A stretch of 33,212 nt of DNA from a virus (Duplodnaviria; Caudoviricetes): IMG/VR virus record IMGVR_UViG_3300027690_000133, positions 1 to 33,212 of that record; one strand, 5' to 3'. The notes beneath the pieces are model-generated. The model was not told the DNA's origin. It worked only from the letters and a program-made list of their open reading frames with translations, and ran no database searches. Each line of letters opens with the position of its first letter. The first letter of the stretch is position 1. Positions 26,433 to 33,212 of this stretch are shown here, piece by piece. The translations under genes were made by a program, and so were the position numbers.

Positions 26433-27640
26433 TAGTACCTCACTACTGTAGCATACTGGTTTAACTTTTTCATTTCATTAGTGTGCATTACATATCGTTC
26501 ACTATCCATTGAGTCGTCTTTCTCTTTTATTGGCTCTTCTTTCATTGAGTCTTTCCATCTGTAATAAAAAATTTCTGAAAGGTGATTAGCGTTATGTTCT
26601 TTTACGATGGCGACGTTATTATTTTTATACTGAGTTCCTACCGTGGTTAGTCCCTCAAATACCGCATTTTCGGCCCGCTCAATATTAAGTTGGGCGTTTT
26701 CCCACATCTCTATTAAATCGGCCCTGGATGGGTCAGCATAAAAAACTATACCTTTATGTTTTGACTGTATTTTTAGCGCTTCCTCAATCCACCAATCAGG
26801 TGCTTTATGCCGTTCAACTATTTCATACAGCCTGTAATATTTACCGTCTAATATTCCATAAACCCCGATAACTCCCGGATGATTATAACCCCAGTCAACC
26901 CCGGCGATATATTCTTTAAAATCTTTTGGCGCTTTGTCTTTAGGTATTACATGCAGATCGTAATTAAAATCTCGGTGAATCATGCCTTCCGCTGCGACCC
27001 ACTGACCGAGGATGTCACGGTCAAACCACATGCCTGATGGAATTGATTTTTTTAAGTTCTCTTTGTAGTCCCCTGAAAGAGTGGTATTGTCATCAAGGAT
27101 AAAGTGCCATGATTTAACCCGTATTCTCCCGTTGCTCATCACCTCATCTGATTTATCAATGTAATCAATTTTAATAGGGTGTTGCGGATGGTCGGGATTT
27201 GTGTCAAAAAACATTCTGAAGCCTTCGCCCGAACATCTCTTGACTGCCTGATCCACGCTGTTCATGTGCGAGAGTGTAATCTCGTTTGCATACCAACCGT
27301 ACGCGGTAATACCCCTCATTCTCTTGTACGAATCAACCTTGTCGGTCCCATAACAATGGATAGTGTTTCCAAAGAGCTTGAAAGTGTTATTCTTGTCCAG
27401 CGATGTATCAACGTTAAACATCACCGATATATCATCTAAAACGTTTGATTTCAAAGACGGTATTGTATAACCCGTCATTATGAACTTCACGCCCCGACCT
27501 TTAAATTCCTTGACGTGCATCATCCATAAAAAGTTATTAACGTATGTTTTTCCCGACCTGACCGCGCCTTCGAGAATGGTAATGATTGGCCGGTGCTTAT
27601 TGTCGTATTGTATTATGTCTCTTTGTTTGCCAGAAAACAT
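26432..27640 (-). CDS. terL: Terminase large subunit (PBSX family)
   Basis: GAVRSGKT Walker A, DTNP, DWGYNHP and D.MD..RY nuclease motifs. Confidence 0.95.
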   Translation of the reverse strand: MFSGKQRDIIQYDNKHRPIITILEGAVRSGKTYVNNFLWMMHVKEFKGRGVKFIMTGYTIPSLKSNVLDDISVMFNVDTSLDKNNTFKLFGNTIHCYGTDKVDSYKRMRGITAYGWYANEITLSHMNSVDQAVKRCSGEGFRMFFDTNPDHPQHPIKIDYIDKSDEVMSNGRIRVKSWHFILDDNTTLSGDYKENLKKSIPSGMWFDRDILGQWVAAEGMIHRDFNYDLHVIPKDKAPKDFKEYIAGVDWGYNHPGVIGVYGILDGKYYRLYEIVERHKAPDWWIEEALKIQSKHKGIVFYADPSRADLIEMWENAQLNIERAENAVFEGLTTVGTQYKNNNVAIVKEHNANHLSEIFYYRWKDSMKEEPIKEKDDSMDSERYVMHTNEMKKLNQYATVVRY

Positions 27641-28128
27641 TATAGTTTTCGGAGTCCATCAAGTAACTCGTCAAGCTTGGTAATGGTTATGTCTTTTTTC
27701 TCAGTGAATCCAACCACATATTTCGATAGGGCATCCAGTGCCGATATTTTGTTATGCAGCTTGTATTCAATGGTTGAATTGTCTTTGCCGTGCTTTATTT
27801 TGACAGCCTCTAAAACTGTTGTATCGGTTTCATTTGTTGCGGTGGGTTCTCCCGTGACCGGGTCCACAAATTTGGATATGTCGGAAAAGGCAATTTTCTT
27901 GTACTCGTTTACAACCTGGAGCGCGAGGGCTTCTTTGTCGTCAAGTATGGCGTTTATTTGCTTGTTGATTTCGGCTTTTATCTCAGCATTTCTAAGCAAT
28001 CTATGACCATTTGACATTGCCGTATCATAATCACAATCATAGACCGCCTGATATGCTTTTGTAGCATTGCAGTTATTAGCCACATATTCAGCTATAAATA
28101 GTTTGTGTTTGTCGCTTAATTCTGCCAT
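27640..28128 (-). CDS. terS: Terminase small subunit
   Basis: L..K.KLF..EY....NATKAY......A..NG.RLLRN..I HTH; KLH.K..AL..L. Confidence 0.92.
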   Translation of the reverse strand: MAELSDKHKLFIAEYVANNCNATKAYQAVYDCDYDTAMSNGHRLLRNAEIKAEINKQINAILDDKEALALQVVNEYKKIAFSDISKFVDPVTGEPTATNETDTTVLEAVKIKHGKDNSTIEYKLHNKISALDALSKYVVGFTEKKDITITKLDELLDGLRKL

Positions 28129-28456
28129 TTTATTAAATTCTATAATTCATTTTTATTATTTTATAATTTACTTAAATACTTTATAAAGAATAGCGGCTAT
28201 AATAAATGTTATCTCATACCTTAAAAGTGCTTCAGGACCGGAATCATCCTTTTGAATCGAATACCAGGTTGTTATTACAAACCATATAAGGTAATATAGT
28301 ATGATGTCGGTCATGTTAATCTATTCTCACGCCATTGGCTCTCAGTATATCGCAGTAATCACCAAAGGTTATGTTTTTATTTATATTTTTGCATACTTTG
28401 TGTAAAAACCAATCAGTATATACATCGTGAAGTTCTTTTATAATACCGGTCATAGT

Positions 28457-28774
28457 TTATTTATTATCAATAATATATCTGCCGTGCCATTTCTTCCAGT
28501 ATTTGACACGTGAACCCTTGTTTATGTTTACATATTGAGATTTGTTAATCGGTATGGATACCGCTTCCCCGTTTTCATTAACCAGTATAGAGGCACTTTC
28601 GGGTATAATTATTGTACCCATGGAGGACTTTCCGTCGGCTGAAACACTGTTACCAATACCAACACTCGAAGGAGTATAGTATTTTTCTATAACCACAGAA
28701 TCCATGATTTCAGGATCGGAACACCCGGAGAATGAAATCAAAATCGATATAATAAATGTGTTTATATATTTCAT
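28457..28774 (-). CDS. Putative lipoprotein
   Basis: Signal peptide with FSG-C lipobox. Confidence 0.65.
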   Translation of the reverse strand: MKYINTFIISILISFSGCSDPEIMDSVVIEKYYTPSSVGIGNSVSADGKSSMGTIIIPESASILVNENGEAVSIPINKSQYVNINKGSRVKYWKKWHGRYIIDNK

Positions 28775-29064
28775 AGTTTACCCATGTCAATTCTAAATAG
28801 AGCACATAGAACAGCAAGTTTTAAGTTTATTACAACAAGGTCTAATTCGTAAATTTGATATAATGCGCTATTTTCTACGCCAGGACACAAACAAACACTT
28901 TTATTTAACTGATCCATTATATCAGCCATTTGATGAATATAAAAATTGCATTGATTACGGGCTATTTTTTTTATACGGTTCATAGCCTCCCCACTATCTT
29001 GACAAAATAATATCAGACGCCTTCCGTAAGCATGATTGACATATTTTTGCCGTACGTGATTCAT
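28771..29064 (-). CDS. Hypothetical protein (probable start MNRIKK)
   Basis: Co-oriented; GGGAGG SD before the internal Met. Confidence 0.5.
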   Translation of the reverse strand: MNHVRQKYVNHAYGRRLILFCQDSGEAMNRIKKIARNQCNFYIHQMADIMDQLNKSVCLCPGVENSALYQIYELDLVVINLKLAVLCALFRIDMGKL

Positions 29065-29365
29065 AGTCTGGTTCTTGGCCGATCTGGATTAAAATTTCCC
29101 AATCCTCGCCACACTCATCACAGTAGTTTTCGGTCCATGATTTATTGCCTATAATATCAATTATCTCCGCTTCTGTCGGTTGGTCTAATTTCAGCAGTTT
29201 TTCGTATATTTCCAATTTATCGCCGCCAGGGGTCATATATCTTTTGTATTGCTTATACCATGACTTGGTAATATTATCTATTTTGTGTTGTTTGGTTATT
29301 ATTTTCATAACACCCCCACTATCTTTACAGCTACTATCAGGACTATTACAGAGGACAGAGTCCAA
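28994..29365 (-). CDS. Zinc-finger phage protein (probable start MKIITK)
   Basis: CDEC ... CQSC pairs. Confidence 0.7.
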   Translation of the reverse strand: MDSVLCNSPDSSCKDSGGVMKIITKQHKIDNITKSWYKQYKRYMTPGGDKLEIYEKLLKLDQPTEAEIIDIIGNKSWTENYCDECGEDWEILIQIGQEPDYESRTAKICQSCLRKASDIILSR

Positions 29366-29409
29366 AAGAGTATTGACAGTATGCGGTTTATGAGTTCTTC
29401 AAAGTCCAT

Positions 29410-29631
29410 CTATACAGCCTTATCATAACCTATTGTCGTAGAATCACCGCTTAGAGTTACGGGATAATAGGTATACGGCCACTCCCATCTCCACGGATAA
29501 ATAACCCACGGGGAAACCGGGGATTCGTATATCTCTTTTAGTTGGTTATATAGAGCCCTGGCTTCAGTATTCGACAGGGTGACCTCTTTACCCTTGCCTA
29601 TTTTTATTTTAACGTTAATTTGTACTTCCAT
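29410..29631 (-). CDS. Hypothetical phage protein
   Basis: EAR.LY.QLKEIY...PW pattern; co-oriented. Confidence 0.65.
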   Translation of the reverse strand: MEVQINVKIKIGKGKEVTLSNTEARALYNQLKEIYESPVSPWVIYPWRWEWPYTYYPVTLSGDSTTIGYDKAV

Positions 29632-29649
29632 TTATTACATCCCTATTTG

Positions 29650-29816
29650 TCACGCCGCAATTAAAGCCCTTTTCTCTAGTCGCCTTTTCCTTTTGGCGGC
29701 TCGCCTGGCTTTATTTTTTATCCATCTTTTTTCAAGTGTATATCTCATTTGTGCCGGTTTTTTTTCTTCCGGCCGTACTTTCTTGTCTTTCTCCCTGTTT
29801 TTGTTTTTGTAGCCAT
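29650..29816 (-). CDS. Highly basic peptide, split by an A8 run (23 aa in frame 0; 55 aa ending -ALIAA with a -1 shift)
   Basis: GAGGT SD; MATKTKTGRKTRKYGRKKKNRHK* in frame 0; -1 frame continues PAQMRYTLEKRWIKNKARRAAKRKRRLEKRALIAA*. Confidence 0.65.
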
Positions 29817-29832
29817 ACTTTACCTCATCATG

Positions 29833-29910
29833 TGGACGCTATCGGAATCGAACCGATGTCTTACAGGTTCCTGTCGGTCTTACTTGTAAGCGAAGCCATT
29901 TACAGCGCCC
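29833..29910 (-). ncRNA. Mini-tmRNA-like RNA (tRNA-like domain only)
   Basis: GGGCGCU/AGCGUCC acceptor with G3:U70 and A73; stemless D-loop GUAAAUGGCUUCG; 9-bp P2 (1 mismatch); GAC linker; T-arm AUCGG-UUCGAUU-CCGAU. Confidence 0.75.
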
Positions 29911-29913
29911 CAA

Positions 29914-29986
29914 TGGTCATGTGTTGGAATCGAACCAACAAAATACCCCAAAAGGGGTTAGCGTCAGCCAATTGCGCCTCCATGAC
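29914..29986 (-). ncRNA. tRNA-like RNA lacking an anticodon loop
   Basis: Acceptor GUCAUG/CAUGAC, D-arm GGCG/CGCU with GG, ACCCC-UUUU-GGGGU arm, 6-bp T-arm with UUCGAUU. Confidence 0.75.
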
Positions 29987-29992
29987 ATTTTT

Positions 29993-30030
29993 TCCCTTCC
30001 CATCCCCGGCGTTGCACCGGGGCGGGAGGA
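29993..30030 (-). ncRNA. T-loop-capped long hairpin (minihelix-like)
   Basis: UCCUCCC-G-CCCCGG-UGCAACG-CCGGGG-AU-GGGAAGGGA. Confidence 0.5.
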
Positions 30031-30034
30031 AAAT

Positions 30035-30116
30035 ACCTTCCAAATTTCGCAGGCTAAAGGAACGCGTCCCGTCAACCATTTATCCAGGCATGGAGCCGAT
30101 CAAAGGCGTGGAAGGT
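30035..30116 (-). ncRNA. Unassigned 82-nt structured RNA at the 5' end of the transcript
   Basis: Closing stem ACCUUCCA/UGGAAGGU, nested CGC/GCG and GGCU/AGCC, hairpins CCAU/AUGG and GGGA/UUCC. Confidence 0.55.
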
Positions 30117-30127
30117 TCACTATTACA

Positions 30128-30156
30128 AGTATAATATATTATGTCCCATTTGTCAA
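30128..30156 (-). promoter_or_regulatory. Near-consensus sigma70 promoter TTGACA-N17-TATACT driving the ncRNA cluster
   Basis: -35 at 30151-30156, -10 at 30128-30133, AT-rich UP element; predicted TSS near 30121. Confidence 0.85.
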
Positions 30157-30244
30157 GTTATTTTTGATTATTTTATAAAATTATTAAATAATCTAAGTTA
30201 ATACGCAATGCGGATATTATTTGTTGTACGAAATGGCGCAAAAC

Positions 30245-30445
30245 TTATTGTAGCCTTTCCGCTTTTGTTAAATCAATATTTTGCATTATTCTTCCGATGT
30301 AACATCCCCCCATTTTAGGCTTTTTTAGTCTCCAACCGGCGGAACATTTATCCTCATCAGAACCGTTATGGCCTCTTTCACACTCGGTACAATCAACATA
30401 AAGTTTCCCCTTGTTATCATAAAAACTTGCTACTTTTTTCATCAC
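30245..30445 (-). CDS. Cys-rich cassette protein
   Basis: C.EC.RG.NG...CSAGW....GC; AGGAG SD; flanked by 22-bp inverted repeats. Confidence 0.75.
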   Translation of the reverse strand: MMKKVASFYDNKGKLYVDCTECERGHNGSDEDKCSAGWRLKKPKMGGCYIGRIMQNIDLTKAERLQ

Positions 30446-30484
30446 GTTCTCCTTTAAATTTTATTCTGTAATTTGCGCCACTTC

Positions 30485-30538
30485 GTACAACAACGGGCAA
30501 GCGACATTAAAACGATCGCCTGCCCTGTTTAGTTAGGC
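30485..30538 (+). repeat. attC-like site 1
   Basis: GTACAAC ... GGGCAAGCGA/TCGCCTGCCC hairpin ... GTTAGGC. Confidence 0.7.
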
Positions 30539-30733
30539 GACATTGTTTTTAAAAAATAGTCTTTCTAAGTCATTGCAACTTTCTCCATTTCTGTAAAAAT
30601 AAACACACCTTACACACACATGCAATTTATTATAATTCACACACTCTTCATGGTTAACTTCATGTGAAACAACGTCGCCTAACAGCGGGTATCCAAAACC
30701 GCTGTTACCCTTCGCATTACCTTTTTCTGTCAT
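30533..30733 (-). CDS. Cys-rich cassette protein starting inside attC-like site 2
   Basis: GGAGG SD; stop codon is the TTA of the GTTAGGC core. Confidence 0.6.
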   Translation of the reverse strand: MTEKGNAKGNSGFGYPLLGDVVSHEVNHEECVNYNKLHVCVRCVYFYRNGESCNDLERLFFKNNVA

Positions 30734-30799
30734 GATGCTTTTCCTCCGTTTTAAATTATTTCCGTCAATCGGCTTCGGATCACCCGCTATATGTTAGGC
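30677..30799 (+). repeat. attC-like site 2
   Basis: GCCTAAC AGCGGGTATCCAAAACCG ... CGGCTTCGGATCACCCGCT ATAT GTTAGGC, with one extrahelical base. Confidence 0.7.
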
Positions 30800-30839
30800 G
30801 AAAATAACCGCCCTTTTCTATCACCAATTTTTAGTTAAT

Positions 30840-31019
30840 TTATTCCTTATCTCTTGAACTTCCTTTTAAATCCGCGAACACGGCATCATGCGCCATTGAT
30901 TCCCTGTTTTGCAATTTATCTTCCAGCCAACGGATATATTTGACATTGAATATATCTATACCTGGACTTAGTTCGCTACTATCGGTTTCTCTCTTGAATC
31001 GATCTCTTAATGATGACAT
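30840..31019 (-). CDS. Hypothetical protein, 59 aa (MSSLRDRFKRET...YIRWLE)
   Basis: Translated by hand; GGAGGGAG SD. Confidence 0.6.
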   Translation of the reverse strand: MSSLRDRFKRETDSSELSPGIDIFNVKYIRWLEDKLQNRESMAHDAVFADLKGSSRDKE

Positions 31020-31382
31020 TCACTCCCTCCTTAAATTCAACGGCGCATATTCCGGGGCTTAATTTATTGTCACGTTTTCCCGTGTGTCCAAAATCAATAA
31101 TATAGTATTTTTAATCTCTGAATCGTCGATAAAATATTCCTGGTGCATTGGTCCGTGGCATTCGTCAATGATACGGAATATCAGGGAGCGGAGATCGTCA
31201 AAGGTTATGTATATTATTCTATCCCCGCCTTTCATACATCCGCCCCAGGATAAAAAACATTGCAGAGAATAACGTCAGTACAGATACGATGAAAAGAATT
31301 TGACAGGTGTAATCGAGTGCTGAATATTGCACGGCCTCATAATATCGGTCAACCGCCGAAACCAGAATCGCCTCGTGATAAT

Positions 31383-31751
31383 TCATCCCTTGATTACCTC
31401 CATCAATTTATCATACTGCTCTTTGTCCCACTCTTTGCGGGTGATTCCGTTATCGACTAAATATTGTTTAATGGGTATATTTTCAAGTTCGCATAATCTG
31501 GCGTATAACTCTTCCCCGATGTGCTTTTCTATAAACTTCTCGCCCTGCTTAGTGTGAAAAAATTTATGACACACCATGCAACCGGGTATTCCGTTCAAGG
31601 GATCGTGTCTCGTTAAAGAGTGACGCCTCTTGATTATGTGGTGACATTCGACGTTCGCAAATCGTGCATCGGCTCCACAATAAGCACAACGGTTACCGTT
31701 AAGGATTAAAACGGCCTTTCGCCAAAGTTGCTGCAAATATCCGTCCGTCAC
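31383..31751 (-). CDS. NinG/Rap-like HNH endonuclease
   Basis: LW......RCAYCG....ECHHII.R....TRHD..NG...C..CH. Confidence 0.8.
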   Translation of the reverse strand: MTDGYLQQLWRKAVLILNGNRCAYCGADARFANVECHHIIKRRHSLTRHDPLNGIPGCMVCHKFFHTKQGEKFIEKHIGEELYARLCELENIPIKQYLVDNGITRKEWDKEQYDKLMEVIKG

Positions 31752-31918
31752 GCCCCGAACCTCTCATTATAATTTCTTAACAGCGACCAATAGCAACTCA
31801 ATGATTTATTAAACATGTCTTCTCGTATCCGCTCCCGTGCCTCGGCTAAATCCGGACGGTCTTTTGTTTCCTTACAGCGGATGTCAAACATGGCTTGTAT
31901 TTTTTCTTTGTCCGTCAT

Positions 31919-32173
31919 TTAATCACCAATCATAAAACCGATTGAAAAGAATCCCGCATAAAATTGGATTGTTTTTTTACCAATAAATCCAAACGTATAG
32001 GGTGTTACAATTTTCCAAAACAAATAATTAGTAAAACCAACCCTAAGTTTAAATGAGCCTATATTAAACCCGGCCCACCGGAGCCTGCGCTCACTCCTAG
32101 CTGGAGCCGTTTTGCATCCCCACTGGAAGATCGTAATTTTACTGTAATTTTCTTTTTCCATTTCATCCTCCAT
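31919..32173 (-). CDS. Hypothetical protein
   Basis: GGAGG SD; downstream of promoter 32180-32208. Confidence 0.55.
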   Translation of the reverse strand: MEDEMEKENYSKITIFQWGCKTAPARSERRLRWAGFNIGSFKLRVGFTNYLFWKIVTPYTFGFIGKKTIQFYAGFFSIGFMIGD

Positions 32174-32179
32174 ACATCA

Positions 32180-32208
32180 ACCTTACTGAATTATGTCTCT
32201 AAAGTCAA
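32180..32208 (-). promoter_or_regulatory. Promoter TTGACT-N17-TAAGGT
   Basis: Same architecture and upstream motif as the 30128-30156 promoter. Confidence 0.55.
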
Positions 32209-32265
32209 ATTATTTTTGATTGTTTTAGTGTATTTTTTTGTTATCTAAGATTGTTTGATTATGGT

Positions 32266-32634
32266 CTATGTCAGCTTCTCCACGCGTTTAATAAACTCAT
32301 CCATCATGTAATTATAGTATTCCTCGGAGTCTTCTATGCCCCTGTCATTTCTTCGCCATGCTTTGAAAAGCTCTTCCCGTAGTATCTGGCTTTTACTTCG
32401 CTTGTCGATTTTTTTTATTGGCGGGAGGTCTATAATATCCTTTGTCTCAATCTGATGGACATTGAACGTAAACCATCCGAGTTGATTTAAGTAATTCATT
32501 AGGGTTGACACCGATTCCGGCTTTAGTCCTTCCTGTGTGTCAATCTGAAGTCGCACCGAACCGCCGGACATGGTGGTCATCTTTGTGATGTAGCCTGGTA
32601 CTTGAAATATTCTGTATTCTGTGTTATCCTTCAT
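32266..32634 (-). CDS. Conserved-looking phage nin-region hypothetical protein
   Basis: T...GSVRL..DTQE, GWF.F, KSQ.LR..LF..W, YY...M. Confidence 0.7.
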   Translation of the reverse strand: MKDNTEYRIFQVPGYITKMTTMSGGSVRLQIDTQEGLKPESVSTLMNYLNQLGWFTFNVHQIETKDIIDLPPIKKIDKRSKSQILREELFKAWRRNDRGIEDSEEYYNYMMDEFIKRVEKLT

Positions 32635-32644
32635 AACTCTTCTT

Positions 32645-32968
32645 TTATCCTATCTTTTTTTTTAATAATCTAATAAGTTCGTTTCCGCCTTTCTTACTCT
32701 TTTTATTGCAATCGAAAAAAAGATAAGGAAGTGTAACGAAATAATCTGTTTTAATCTTGGGAATATATTTTAAAACACATTCCCAAGAACAGAAATGTAA
32801 ATATTCTGGTTGATCTGAATTTTTAAAAATAGTCATTTCCAACCTTTCGGTTTCGTTTGGATATTCTTTAATTTCTTTTTTGCATTCATCACACCCATAT
32901 ACCCCTGGAGAAATACACCGTTTTTTCTCCACCATTACTTTTTTGTATTCTGCTTTTTTGATTATCAT
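32645..32968 (-). CDS. Zinc-binding hypothetical protein
   Basis: CDEC and HFCSWEC motifs; GGAGG SD. Confidence 0.7.
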   Translation of the reverse strand: MIIKKAEYKKVMVEKKRCISPGVYGCDECKKEIKEYPNETERLEMTIFKNSDQPEYLHFCSWECVLKYIPKIKTDYFVTLPYLFFDCNKKSKKGGNELIRLLKKKIG

Positions 32969-32993
32969 ATCCCCTCCTTCTGACGTTGTTATT

Positions 32994-33212
32994 TTAATCT
33001 TCCATTACGCATTTATCCATTTTGTGTGAGGTCCAGCACATCAGGTAATCGTCGCAATGATGATCACAATTACATTTATATGCCGGGACACAATCATCTG
33101 GAATTTCACCACAAGGAAATAAATCATTTACCCCGCAACCGCAATCATCTGAGCATAGGCCATCAAAACCTTTCTCTTCGAGATAATTTTTAATCAATTC
33201 TTTTACTGTCAT
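32994..33212 (-). CDS. Cys-rich hypothetical phage protein
   Basis: YL...GFDGLC..CGC...DL.PC....C.P.Y. Confidence 0.7.
   Translation of the reverse strand: MTVKELIKNYLEEKGFDGLCSDDCGCGVNDLFPCGEIPDDCVPAYKCNCDHHCDDYLMCWTSHKMDKCVMED

Follow-up and report, generated by a model that had tools for sequence, protein, structure and literature searches.

A compact cluster of small-RNA genes in a temperate phage carries a mini-tmRNA that belongs to a covarying viral family including the published molecule of phage DS6A. The reading that we prefer, at a probability of about 0.55, is that this DS6A-type mini-tmRNA likely binds host SmpB and damps tagging, and that it stands beside exchangeable RNA slots and an independent, frameshifted gene for a basic microprotein. 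The cluster lies in a 33,212-nt stretch of viral DNA, hereafter the window, and combines a known kind of RNA, RNA slots that vary and a microprotein family that is widespread but has no name; it is not one fixed new system.

The locus and its promoter

The 33-kb record is classed as a provirus. An integrase lies at the left of the window, the minus strand carries a full head-tail-lysis set with the large structural genes open, and TerL is at most 39% identical to the TerL of cultured phages. The small-RNA cluster shares the minus strand with terS and precedes it by about 1.5 kb (Table 1). Downstream of the promoter, the order is an 82-nt RNA, a 44-nt hairpin, a 72-nt tRNA-like gene, the mini-tmRNA, an SD-like GAGG and the ATG at 29816. 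An earlier sequence-only reading of the region had described a near-perfect sigma-70 promoter and elements separated by only a few nucleotides, and both descriptions hold: the promoter tops the 29 consensus sites in 27000–33212, and the measured spacers are 1, 3 and 4 nt between the elements of the cluster and 16 nt from the mini-tmRNA to the ATG. The window has five sites matching 11 of 12 consensus positions, where 10 shuffles gave 0.7 on average; the four besides the cluster promoter, at 28790, 23516, 11731 and 4212, are all on the minus strand. The DNA immediately upstream of the cluster promoter is a tract of 91% AT, and the promoter spacer contains a perfect palindrome of 12 nt (30131–30142), overlapping or adjoining the -10 box, that may be an operator.

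Table 1. Features of the cluster from the promoter to the peptide gene, with positions in the window
Feature	Position	Strand	Remarks
Sigma-70-type promoter TTGACA-17-TATACT	30128..30156	-	11/12 consensus match; predicted start about 30121
82-nt predicted multi-stem RNA	30035..30116	-	Perfect 8-bp closing stem; no family
Hairpin capped by UGCAA T-loop-like motif	29990..30033	-	Stable predicted fold; core 29997-30031
Degenerate tRNA-like gene	29915..29986	-	T arm and D-loop GG intact; short anticodon arm around CUUUUG
TLD-only mini-tmRNA, DS6A type	29830..29910	-	Covariance-model score, fold, kept in relative X2
SD-like GAGG	29826-29823	-	Ahead of ORF1 ATG 29816
ORF1, 23 aa, 52% K/R, N-terminal half of microprotein	29745..29816	-	Matches family profile positions 1-20
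A8 homopolymer at frame break	29758..29765	-	Source sequencing run agrees; A9 in relative X2
ORF2, 32 aa, C-terminal half, ends LIAA	29650..29748	-	Matches profile positions 25-52, E 1.6e-13

Between the peptide gene and terS, a terminator search of the minus strand found none, its sole match being the arm of the tRNA-like gene itself, and the cluster is therefore likely to form the 5' portion of a transcript towards the packaging genes. None of the sequencing runs listed as containing the sequence was an RNA run. Some temperate phages have their tRNAs located behind late promoters. Rfam searches of the whole window, of 29600–30200 and of two narrow windows gave zero matches at gathering level, so the Rfam check proposed with the earlier reading placed none of the four RNAs in a known family; in ARAGORN, the sole call in the cluster was the tRNA-like gene, as tRNA-???. 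When the region was compared with cultured phages by BLASTN, the best 20 of 61 matches were all to AT-rich promoter DNA; a TerL-based locus search found one distant locus, without the cluster; and the search for antisense targets of at least 11 nt elsewhere in the window gave low-complexity matches only. Contig joints skip 30223–30531 in the source run and 28322–29313 and 29411–29646 in a relative, which suggests that the skipped blocks around the cluster are exchangeable small-gene segments.

A viral family of mini-tmRNAs

The window mini-tmRNA has a 7-bp acceptor with G3:U70, A73, an unpaired D loop of the tmRNA type (GGnUUCG), a GAC connector and a T arm; a short P2 arm with an inner hairpin replaces the mRNA-like domain, and CCA is not encoded. 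Counted to the CCA positions, the gene is 81 nt long (the family mode is 81–82), and its folding z score is -2.7, with 1 of 200 shuffles as good. It has no resume codon or tag-frame domain and drew no tmRNA call from ARAGORN or RF00023, and a scan with its exact 5' motif found no homologue. The family was collected with a pattern of a tmRNA D loop followed within 15–45 nt by GAC and a T arm, which fits about 390 IMG/VR stretches (an estimate from 20 of 64 parts scanned, with 120 returned). The pattern prescribed U70-C71-C72-A73 and left their pairing partners free; a perfect 7-bp acceptor is formed by 92 of the 97 distinct sequences, the window included, and among these G3:U70 is present in 91 and the 5-bp T stem in all 92. 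The five sequences with poor acceptors are probably tmRNA fragments or chance matches. Only 24 in the survey of 97 encode CCA, and the last base of the D loop, which is C in the window copy, is A in 90 of 97 and C in 4.

The covariation check proposed with the sequence-only reading came out positive for this RNA. Among 38 mini-tmRNA sequences of equal D-loop length, the window excluded, base pairing occurs in 95.6% of cells and both partners vary in 17 of the 22 pairs, a level reached by 0 of 500 shuffles, in a test inflated by relatedness, and by no slid control. A model built on the same 38 viral sequences (R1) gives the window gene 49.8 bits (E 5e-10) as its sole match in 33 kb, bearing out the description of a tag-less mini-tmRNA; the TLD-only tmRNA published for DS6A shares the inner hairpin and scores higher, at 60 bits, and ordinary tRNAs score at most 28. 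A copy in Streptomyces phage LuckySocke reaches 92 bits; it is unannotated and sits in a tRNA cluster (L214:1501–1581, equal to OR725497.1 17977–18057), and phages related to LuckySocke also match the mini-tmRNA search. Canonical tRNAs were nearby in 17 of 100 distinct mini-tmRNA loci. Candidate nondecoding T-arm RNAs stand beside other mini-tmRNAs at about five loci, and L003, L024, L069, L096, L104 and L212 carry T-arm RNAs that have complete or nearly complete acceptor stems, odd middle arms and no tRNA call.

The DS6A TLD-only tmRNA, described by Hudson et al. 2014 (PMC4131195) and Nawrocki et al. 2025 (PMC11915505), has its fold, size, G3:U70, tmRNA D loop, T arm, P2 inner hairpin and unencoded CCA in common with the window copy. 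It differs in ending the D loop with A and in having gp33 and a DNA polymerase III gene as its neighbors, whereas the window copy belongs to a cluster of four RNAs together with a promoter and a basic microprotein gene. With standard tmRNA (SsrA, RF00023), the window gene shares the tRNA-like domain with alanine identity; unlike SsrA, it is without pseudoknots, resume codon and tag frame, and the LIAA open reading frame lies outside the 3' end of the RNA, with its own SD and start. The arrangement had been thought undescribed, and this needs dividing: the mini-tmRNA kind was already published with DS6A, and the peptide family is unannotated. A search of the literature, with subscription journals largely outside its scope, found no other reports of the tag-less form or of such clusters.

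The neighboring RNAs and the split microprotein gene

The 82-nt RNA had been proposed as a structured element. It is present with its closing stem, of a perfection found at 32 of 33,102 window positions, and its overall folding is weak: the z score is -2.0 (6 of 200 shuffles as good) and, in a second run, -1.5, a value equaled or undercut in 11% of 150 same-size genome windows. A pattern search with the closing stem found no homologue, and a narrow Rfam search returned only a 9-bit match on the opposite strand and no known ribozyme or riboswitch. A likeness to twister, pistol or HDV-like ribozymes was considered and is unsupported by Rfam.

The hairpin is a different matter. It folds strongly, with a z score of -4.95 (0 of 200 shuffles as good), and has the T-loop-like cap named in the earlier reading. 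Eleven other viral stretches (L122–L132), of which six are one sequence, contain its 19-nt core, and we read it as a recurrent phage element that is not clearly a tRNA mimic. In these GC-rich phages, the cores are stand-alone and intergenic, have no tRNAs beside them and mostly follow a stop codon directly.

The tRNA-like gene had been read as an anticodon-less tRNA with essentially intact stems. The short loop is real, and the gene folds with a z score of -3.3 (2 of 200 shuffles as good); the intact stems are contradicted by G7.A66 and C13.A22 mismatches, to which A8, C73 and a missing CCA are added. Its elbow is kept, with the D-loop GG, the T loop and A15-U48. The arm can be read in two ways, as 5 bp with a 4-nt loop or, following ARAGORN, as an anticodon loop around UUU that lacks one base. 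The gene lacks the 7-nt anticodon loop, the U8 and the above-cut-off Rfam score of a decoding tRNA, and the claim that the RNAs are unable to decode is upheld, no decoding tRNA being present in the cluster. A scan with its motif found no homologue and one unrelated long-armed element. It shares the cloverleaf, T arm, D-loop GG and loop UUU with tRNA-Lys(UUU) and RF00005 and, on these likenesses, may be a tRNA-Lys(UUU) relic, from which it would differ in its 26.6 bits against a cut-off of 29, its short loop, A8, G7.A66, C73 and lack of CCA. C73 is not known to be a Lys identity base. tRNA-Lys(UUU) is targeted by PrrC (PMC10264068), and a decoy role of the tRNA-like gene is therefore conceivable; decay is, too.

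The earlier reading placed an SD and ATG ahead of a K/R-rich peptide with a long form ending in LIAA. The SD-like GAGG and the basic ORF1 are there, and no unbroken frame encodes the long form in the window DNA, where ORF1 and ORF2 overlap at ATGA. In an independent groundwater run, a relative has one more base at the A run, joining both halves in one frame, and 119 of 121 homologues have both halves in a single open reading frame; the long form is thus the normal gene and the window copy is frameshifted. Together, the window halves fit the family motif, GR-x4-P-[SA]-x2-RY-x2-E-x-RW-x2-NK within a K/R-rich open reading frame of 46–78 aa. A degenerate ORF2 pattern found 19 viral stretches, all in small basic open reading frames that also have the N-terminal basic part; a second peptide pattern gave 16 matches, of which 2 chance ones were dropped. 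A profile of 16 of the 19 stretches plus ORF2 collected 292 proteins at E <= 0.001, and none of the 120 listed among these has a functional name.

Searches with the family in Pfam, PHROG, NCBIfam and PDB gave no assignment beyond weak DUF7022 matches in 4 of 55; single-sequence peptide searches gave nothing in one case and two matches in another, ESM Atlas returned unnamed clusters only, below its recognition level, and a search for fused longer forms found none, which is weak evidence. The literature on the peptide context, again with subscription journals largely outside scope, yielded nothing further. The microprotein is predicted to have a flexible basic N terminus and one helix, and AlphaFold models homologue P0007 as one long helix. 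K/R-rich composition and a helix are common to the microprotein and to the C-terminal tail of SmpB or basic ribosome-binding peptides. Mimicry of the SmpB tail was rejected: scores against 29 SmpB tails equaled those of shuffled controls, and the hhalign probability was 0.1%. At L136, L139, L141, L144, L145 and L146, in large phages, a tiny open reading frame of about 10–15 codons with GGAGG (Gly-Gly) directly precedes a second strong SD and the microprotein start.

The LIAA end had been proposed as a degron tag. AA C termini occur in 4 of 121 homologues, where 4.0 are expected from tail composition, and LIAA is hence not a conserved degron or a feature of the family; the contig of relative X2 stops before that end. 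The end of the window ORF2 itself could nevertheless be a ClpXP substrate.

Conservation of the arrangement and its likely function

The closest comparison comes from X2, a single 880-nt contig of depth 5.9 from one study. It matches the window over 30124–30217 with 2 differences, over 29997–30031 without any (35/35) and over 29676–29911 with 4 substitutions and 1 insertion, 3 of the substitutions being in the mini-tmRNA itself. In place of the 82-nt RNA, X2 has 38 other nucleotides and, in place of the tRNA-like gene, 150 others; its flanking genes differ from those of the window or are missing. We read the two RNA slots, replaced in this one relative, as exchangeable. Conservation of gene order, a check proposed earlier, is thus found in part: the promoter, hairpin, mini-tmRNA and peptide keep their order in X2, whereas two RNAs are swapped and distant phages show no link. 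The peptide was absent from the flanks of all 120 mini-tmRNA loci, which reached up to 800 nt and, in one third of the cases, some 300 nt; a score at the level of the mini-tmRNA was reached in 0 of 21 peptide-bearing viral records (best 28.2 bits; mostly fragments, three at least 90% complete); and the linked pattern of T arm plus peptide had L152, identical to the window, as its sole match in the metagenome collection. Across distant phages, the sequences surveyed have the mini-tmRNA and the peptide occurring independently. A looser, apparent association is seen with tRNA and tmRNA genes: the flanks of 20 peptide loci contain tRNAs in 5 cases and a full tmRNA in 2, several of the phages looking related. 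At L144:1642–2012 and L163:2183–2563, the microprotein gene is followed, after a few hundred bases, by a full-length phage tmRNA gene. About 1 kb upstream of another microprotein gene, whose product ends in AA, L151:1951–2038 (minus strand) holds a tRNA-like RNA with a G3:U70 acceptor, a CCA end and a long arm for the anticodon arm, which ARAGORN and Rfam missed.

Under the reading that we prefer, a single transcript would begin near 30121 and extend in the direction of the terminase genes. At its tRNA-like shapes, RNase P and 3' nucleases would cut it, the host would add the CCA of the mini-tmRNA, and AlaRS would charge its G3:U70 acceptor. The mini-tmRNA would bind SmpB and EF-Tu with no tag frame and, because of this, we infer that it would compete with host tmRNA. 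For the microprotein, with its predicted flexible basic N terminus and one long helix, binding to RNA or to the ribosome is likely; in this copy, the full-length protein would require slippage on the A run, and without it the two halves would be made separately. There is precedent for the central step: PMC4131195 and PMC11915505, citing Mao et al. 2009, state that a tag-less DS6A-like molecule, of different sequence and in E. coli, inhibits endogenous tmRNA, perhaps by SmpB titration. Of the functions proposed by the sequence-only reading, interference with ribosome rescue is then the likeliest, and one integrated, degron-controlled system is unsupported. A bolder version, which we regard as rather unlikely, would make the promoter, T-loop hairpin, mini-tmRNA and microprotein the fixed frame of an anti-translation-surveillance cassette with two swappable, noncoding tRNA-decoy slots, the microprotein, whose family occurs next to tRNA clusters and full tmRNAs of unrelated phages, being an undescribed ribosome- or tmRNA-binding factor switched here by homopolymer slippage.

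Much of what is irregular in the cluster could also come from decay of a prophage tRNA cluster, in which the tRNA-like gene would be a tRNA-Lys(UUU) pseudogene, a deletion in the homopolymer would have inactivated the peptide gene and the 82-nt RNA would be a leader structured by chance, so that some parts or none work. The provirus classification fits this, as do the mismatches, the score below cut-off and the loop one base short around UUU, the splitting of the peptide in the window copy only, and the weak folding of an 82-nt RNA that is absent from X2. We nevertheless hold decay to be unlikely, since X2, in which the flanking genes differ or are missing, has almost the same mini-tmRNA, promoter region and hairpin core, the tRNA-like gene keeps its elbow and has C73, which is not known for Lys identity, and the large structural genes are open.

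The strongly conserved alanine identity (G3:U70 in 91/92) raises a further alternative, as pure SmpB titration would not need it: alanylated mini-tmRNA with SmpB may accept the nascent chain in stalled ribosomes, recycling them without a degradation tag and aiding phage translation. Some mitochondria retain tmRNAs without a coding sequence together with SmpB (PMC11915505), and host SsrA is stable during T4 infection (PMC9697503). Against this, the experiment cited above, as described in PMC4131195, found inhibition regardless of whether the RNA could be charged, and release without a stop codon needs a further factor; we find tag-free rescue quite improbable.

The integrated system of the earlier reading, with four RNAs and a degron-controlled peptide as one conserved module decoying tRNA-targeting defences and rewiring rescue, draws on the tight spacing behind one strong promoter, the lack of a decoding tRNA, the order kept in X2 and the peptide relatives often near tRNA or tmRNA genes, but is very improbable given that 2 of 4 RNA slots differ in the closest relative, that the linked pattern matched only the window's own sequence in the metagenome collection, that the peptide and mini-tmRNA were never found together in either survey (0/120 and 0/21) and that AA ends are at chance level.

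The layout has a counterpart in the tRNA region of T4, where PMC3014915 and PMC9697503 describe two small RNAs of unassigned role, RNAC and RNAD. Closely spaced tRNA-shaped and other stable RNAs are found in both, a likeness by description only; unlike the T4 cluster, the window has no decoding tRNA and belongs to a small temperate phage.

TLD-only tmRNAs in print come from one phage, DS6A, and a few organelles, whereas our strict pattern finds about 390 viral stretches, and the LuckySocke copy, being in a cultured phage, makes the question of what a mini-tmRNA does testable. The swap of the RNA slots, which rests on one contig, would point to selection by host defences. The microprotein family, with at least 292 proteins, has no name or domain model and is often near tRNA or tmRNA genes; if its members do bind ribosomes, they would be a new phage translation factor.
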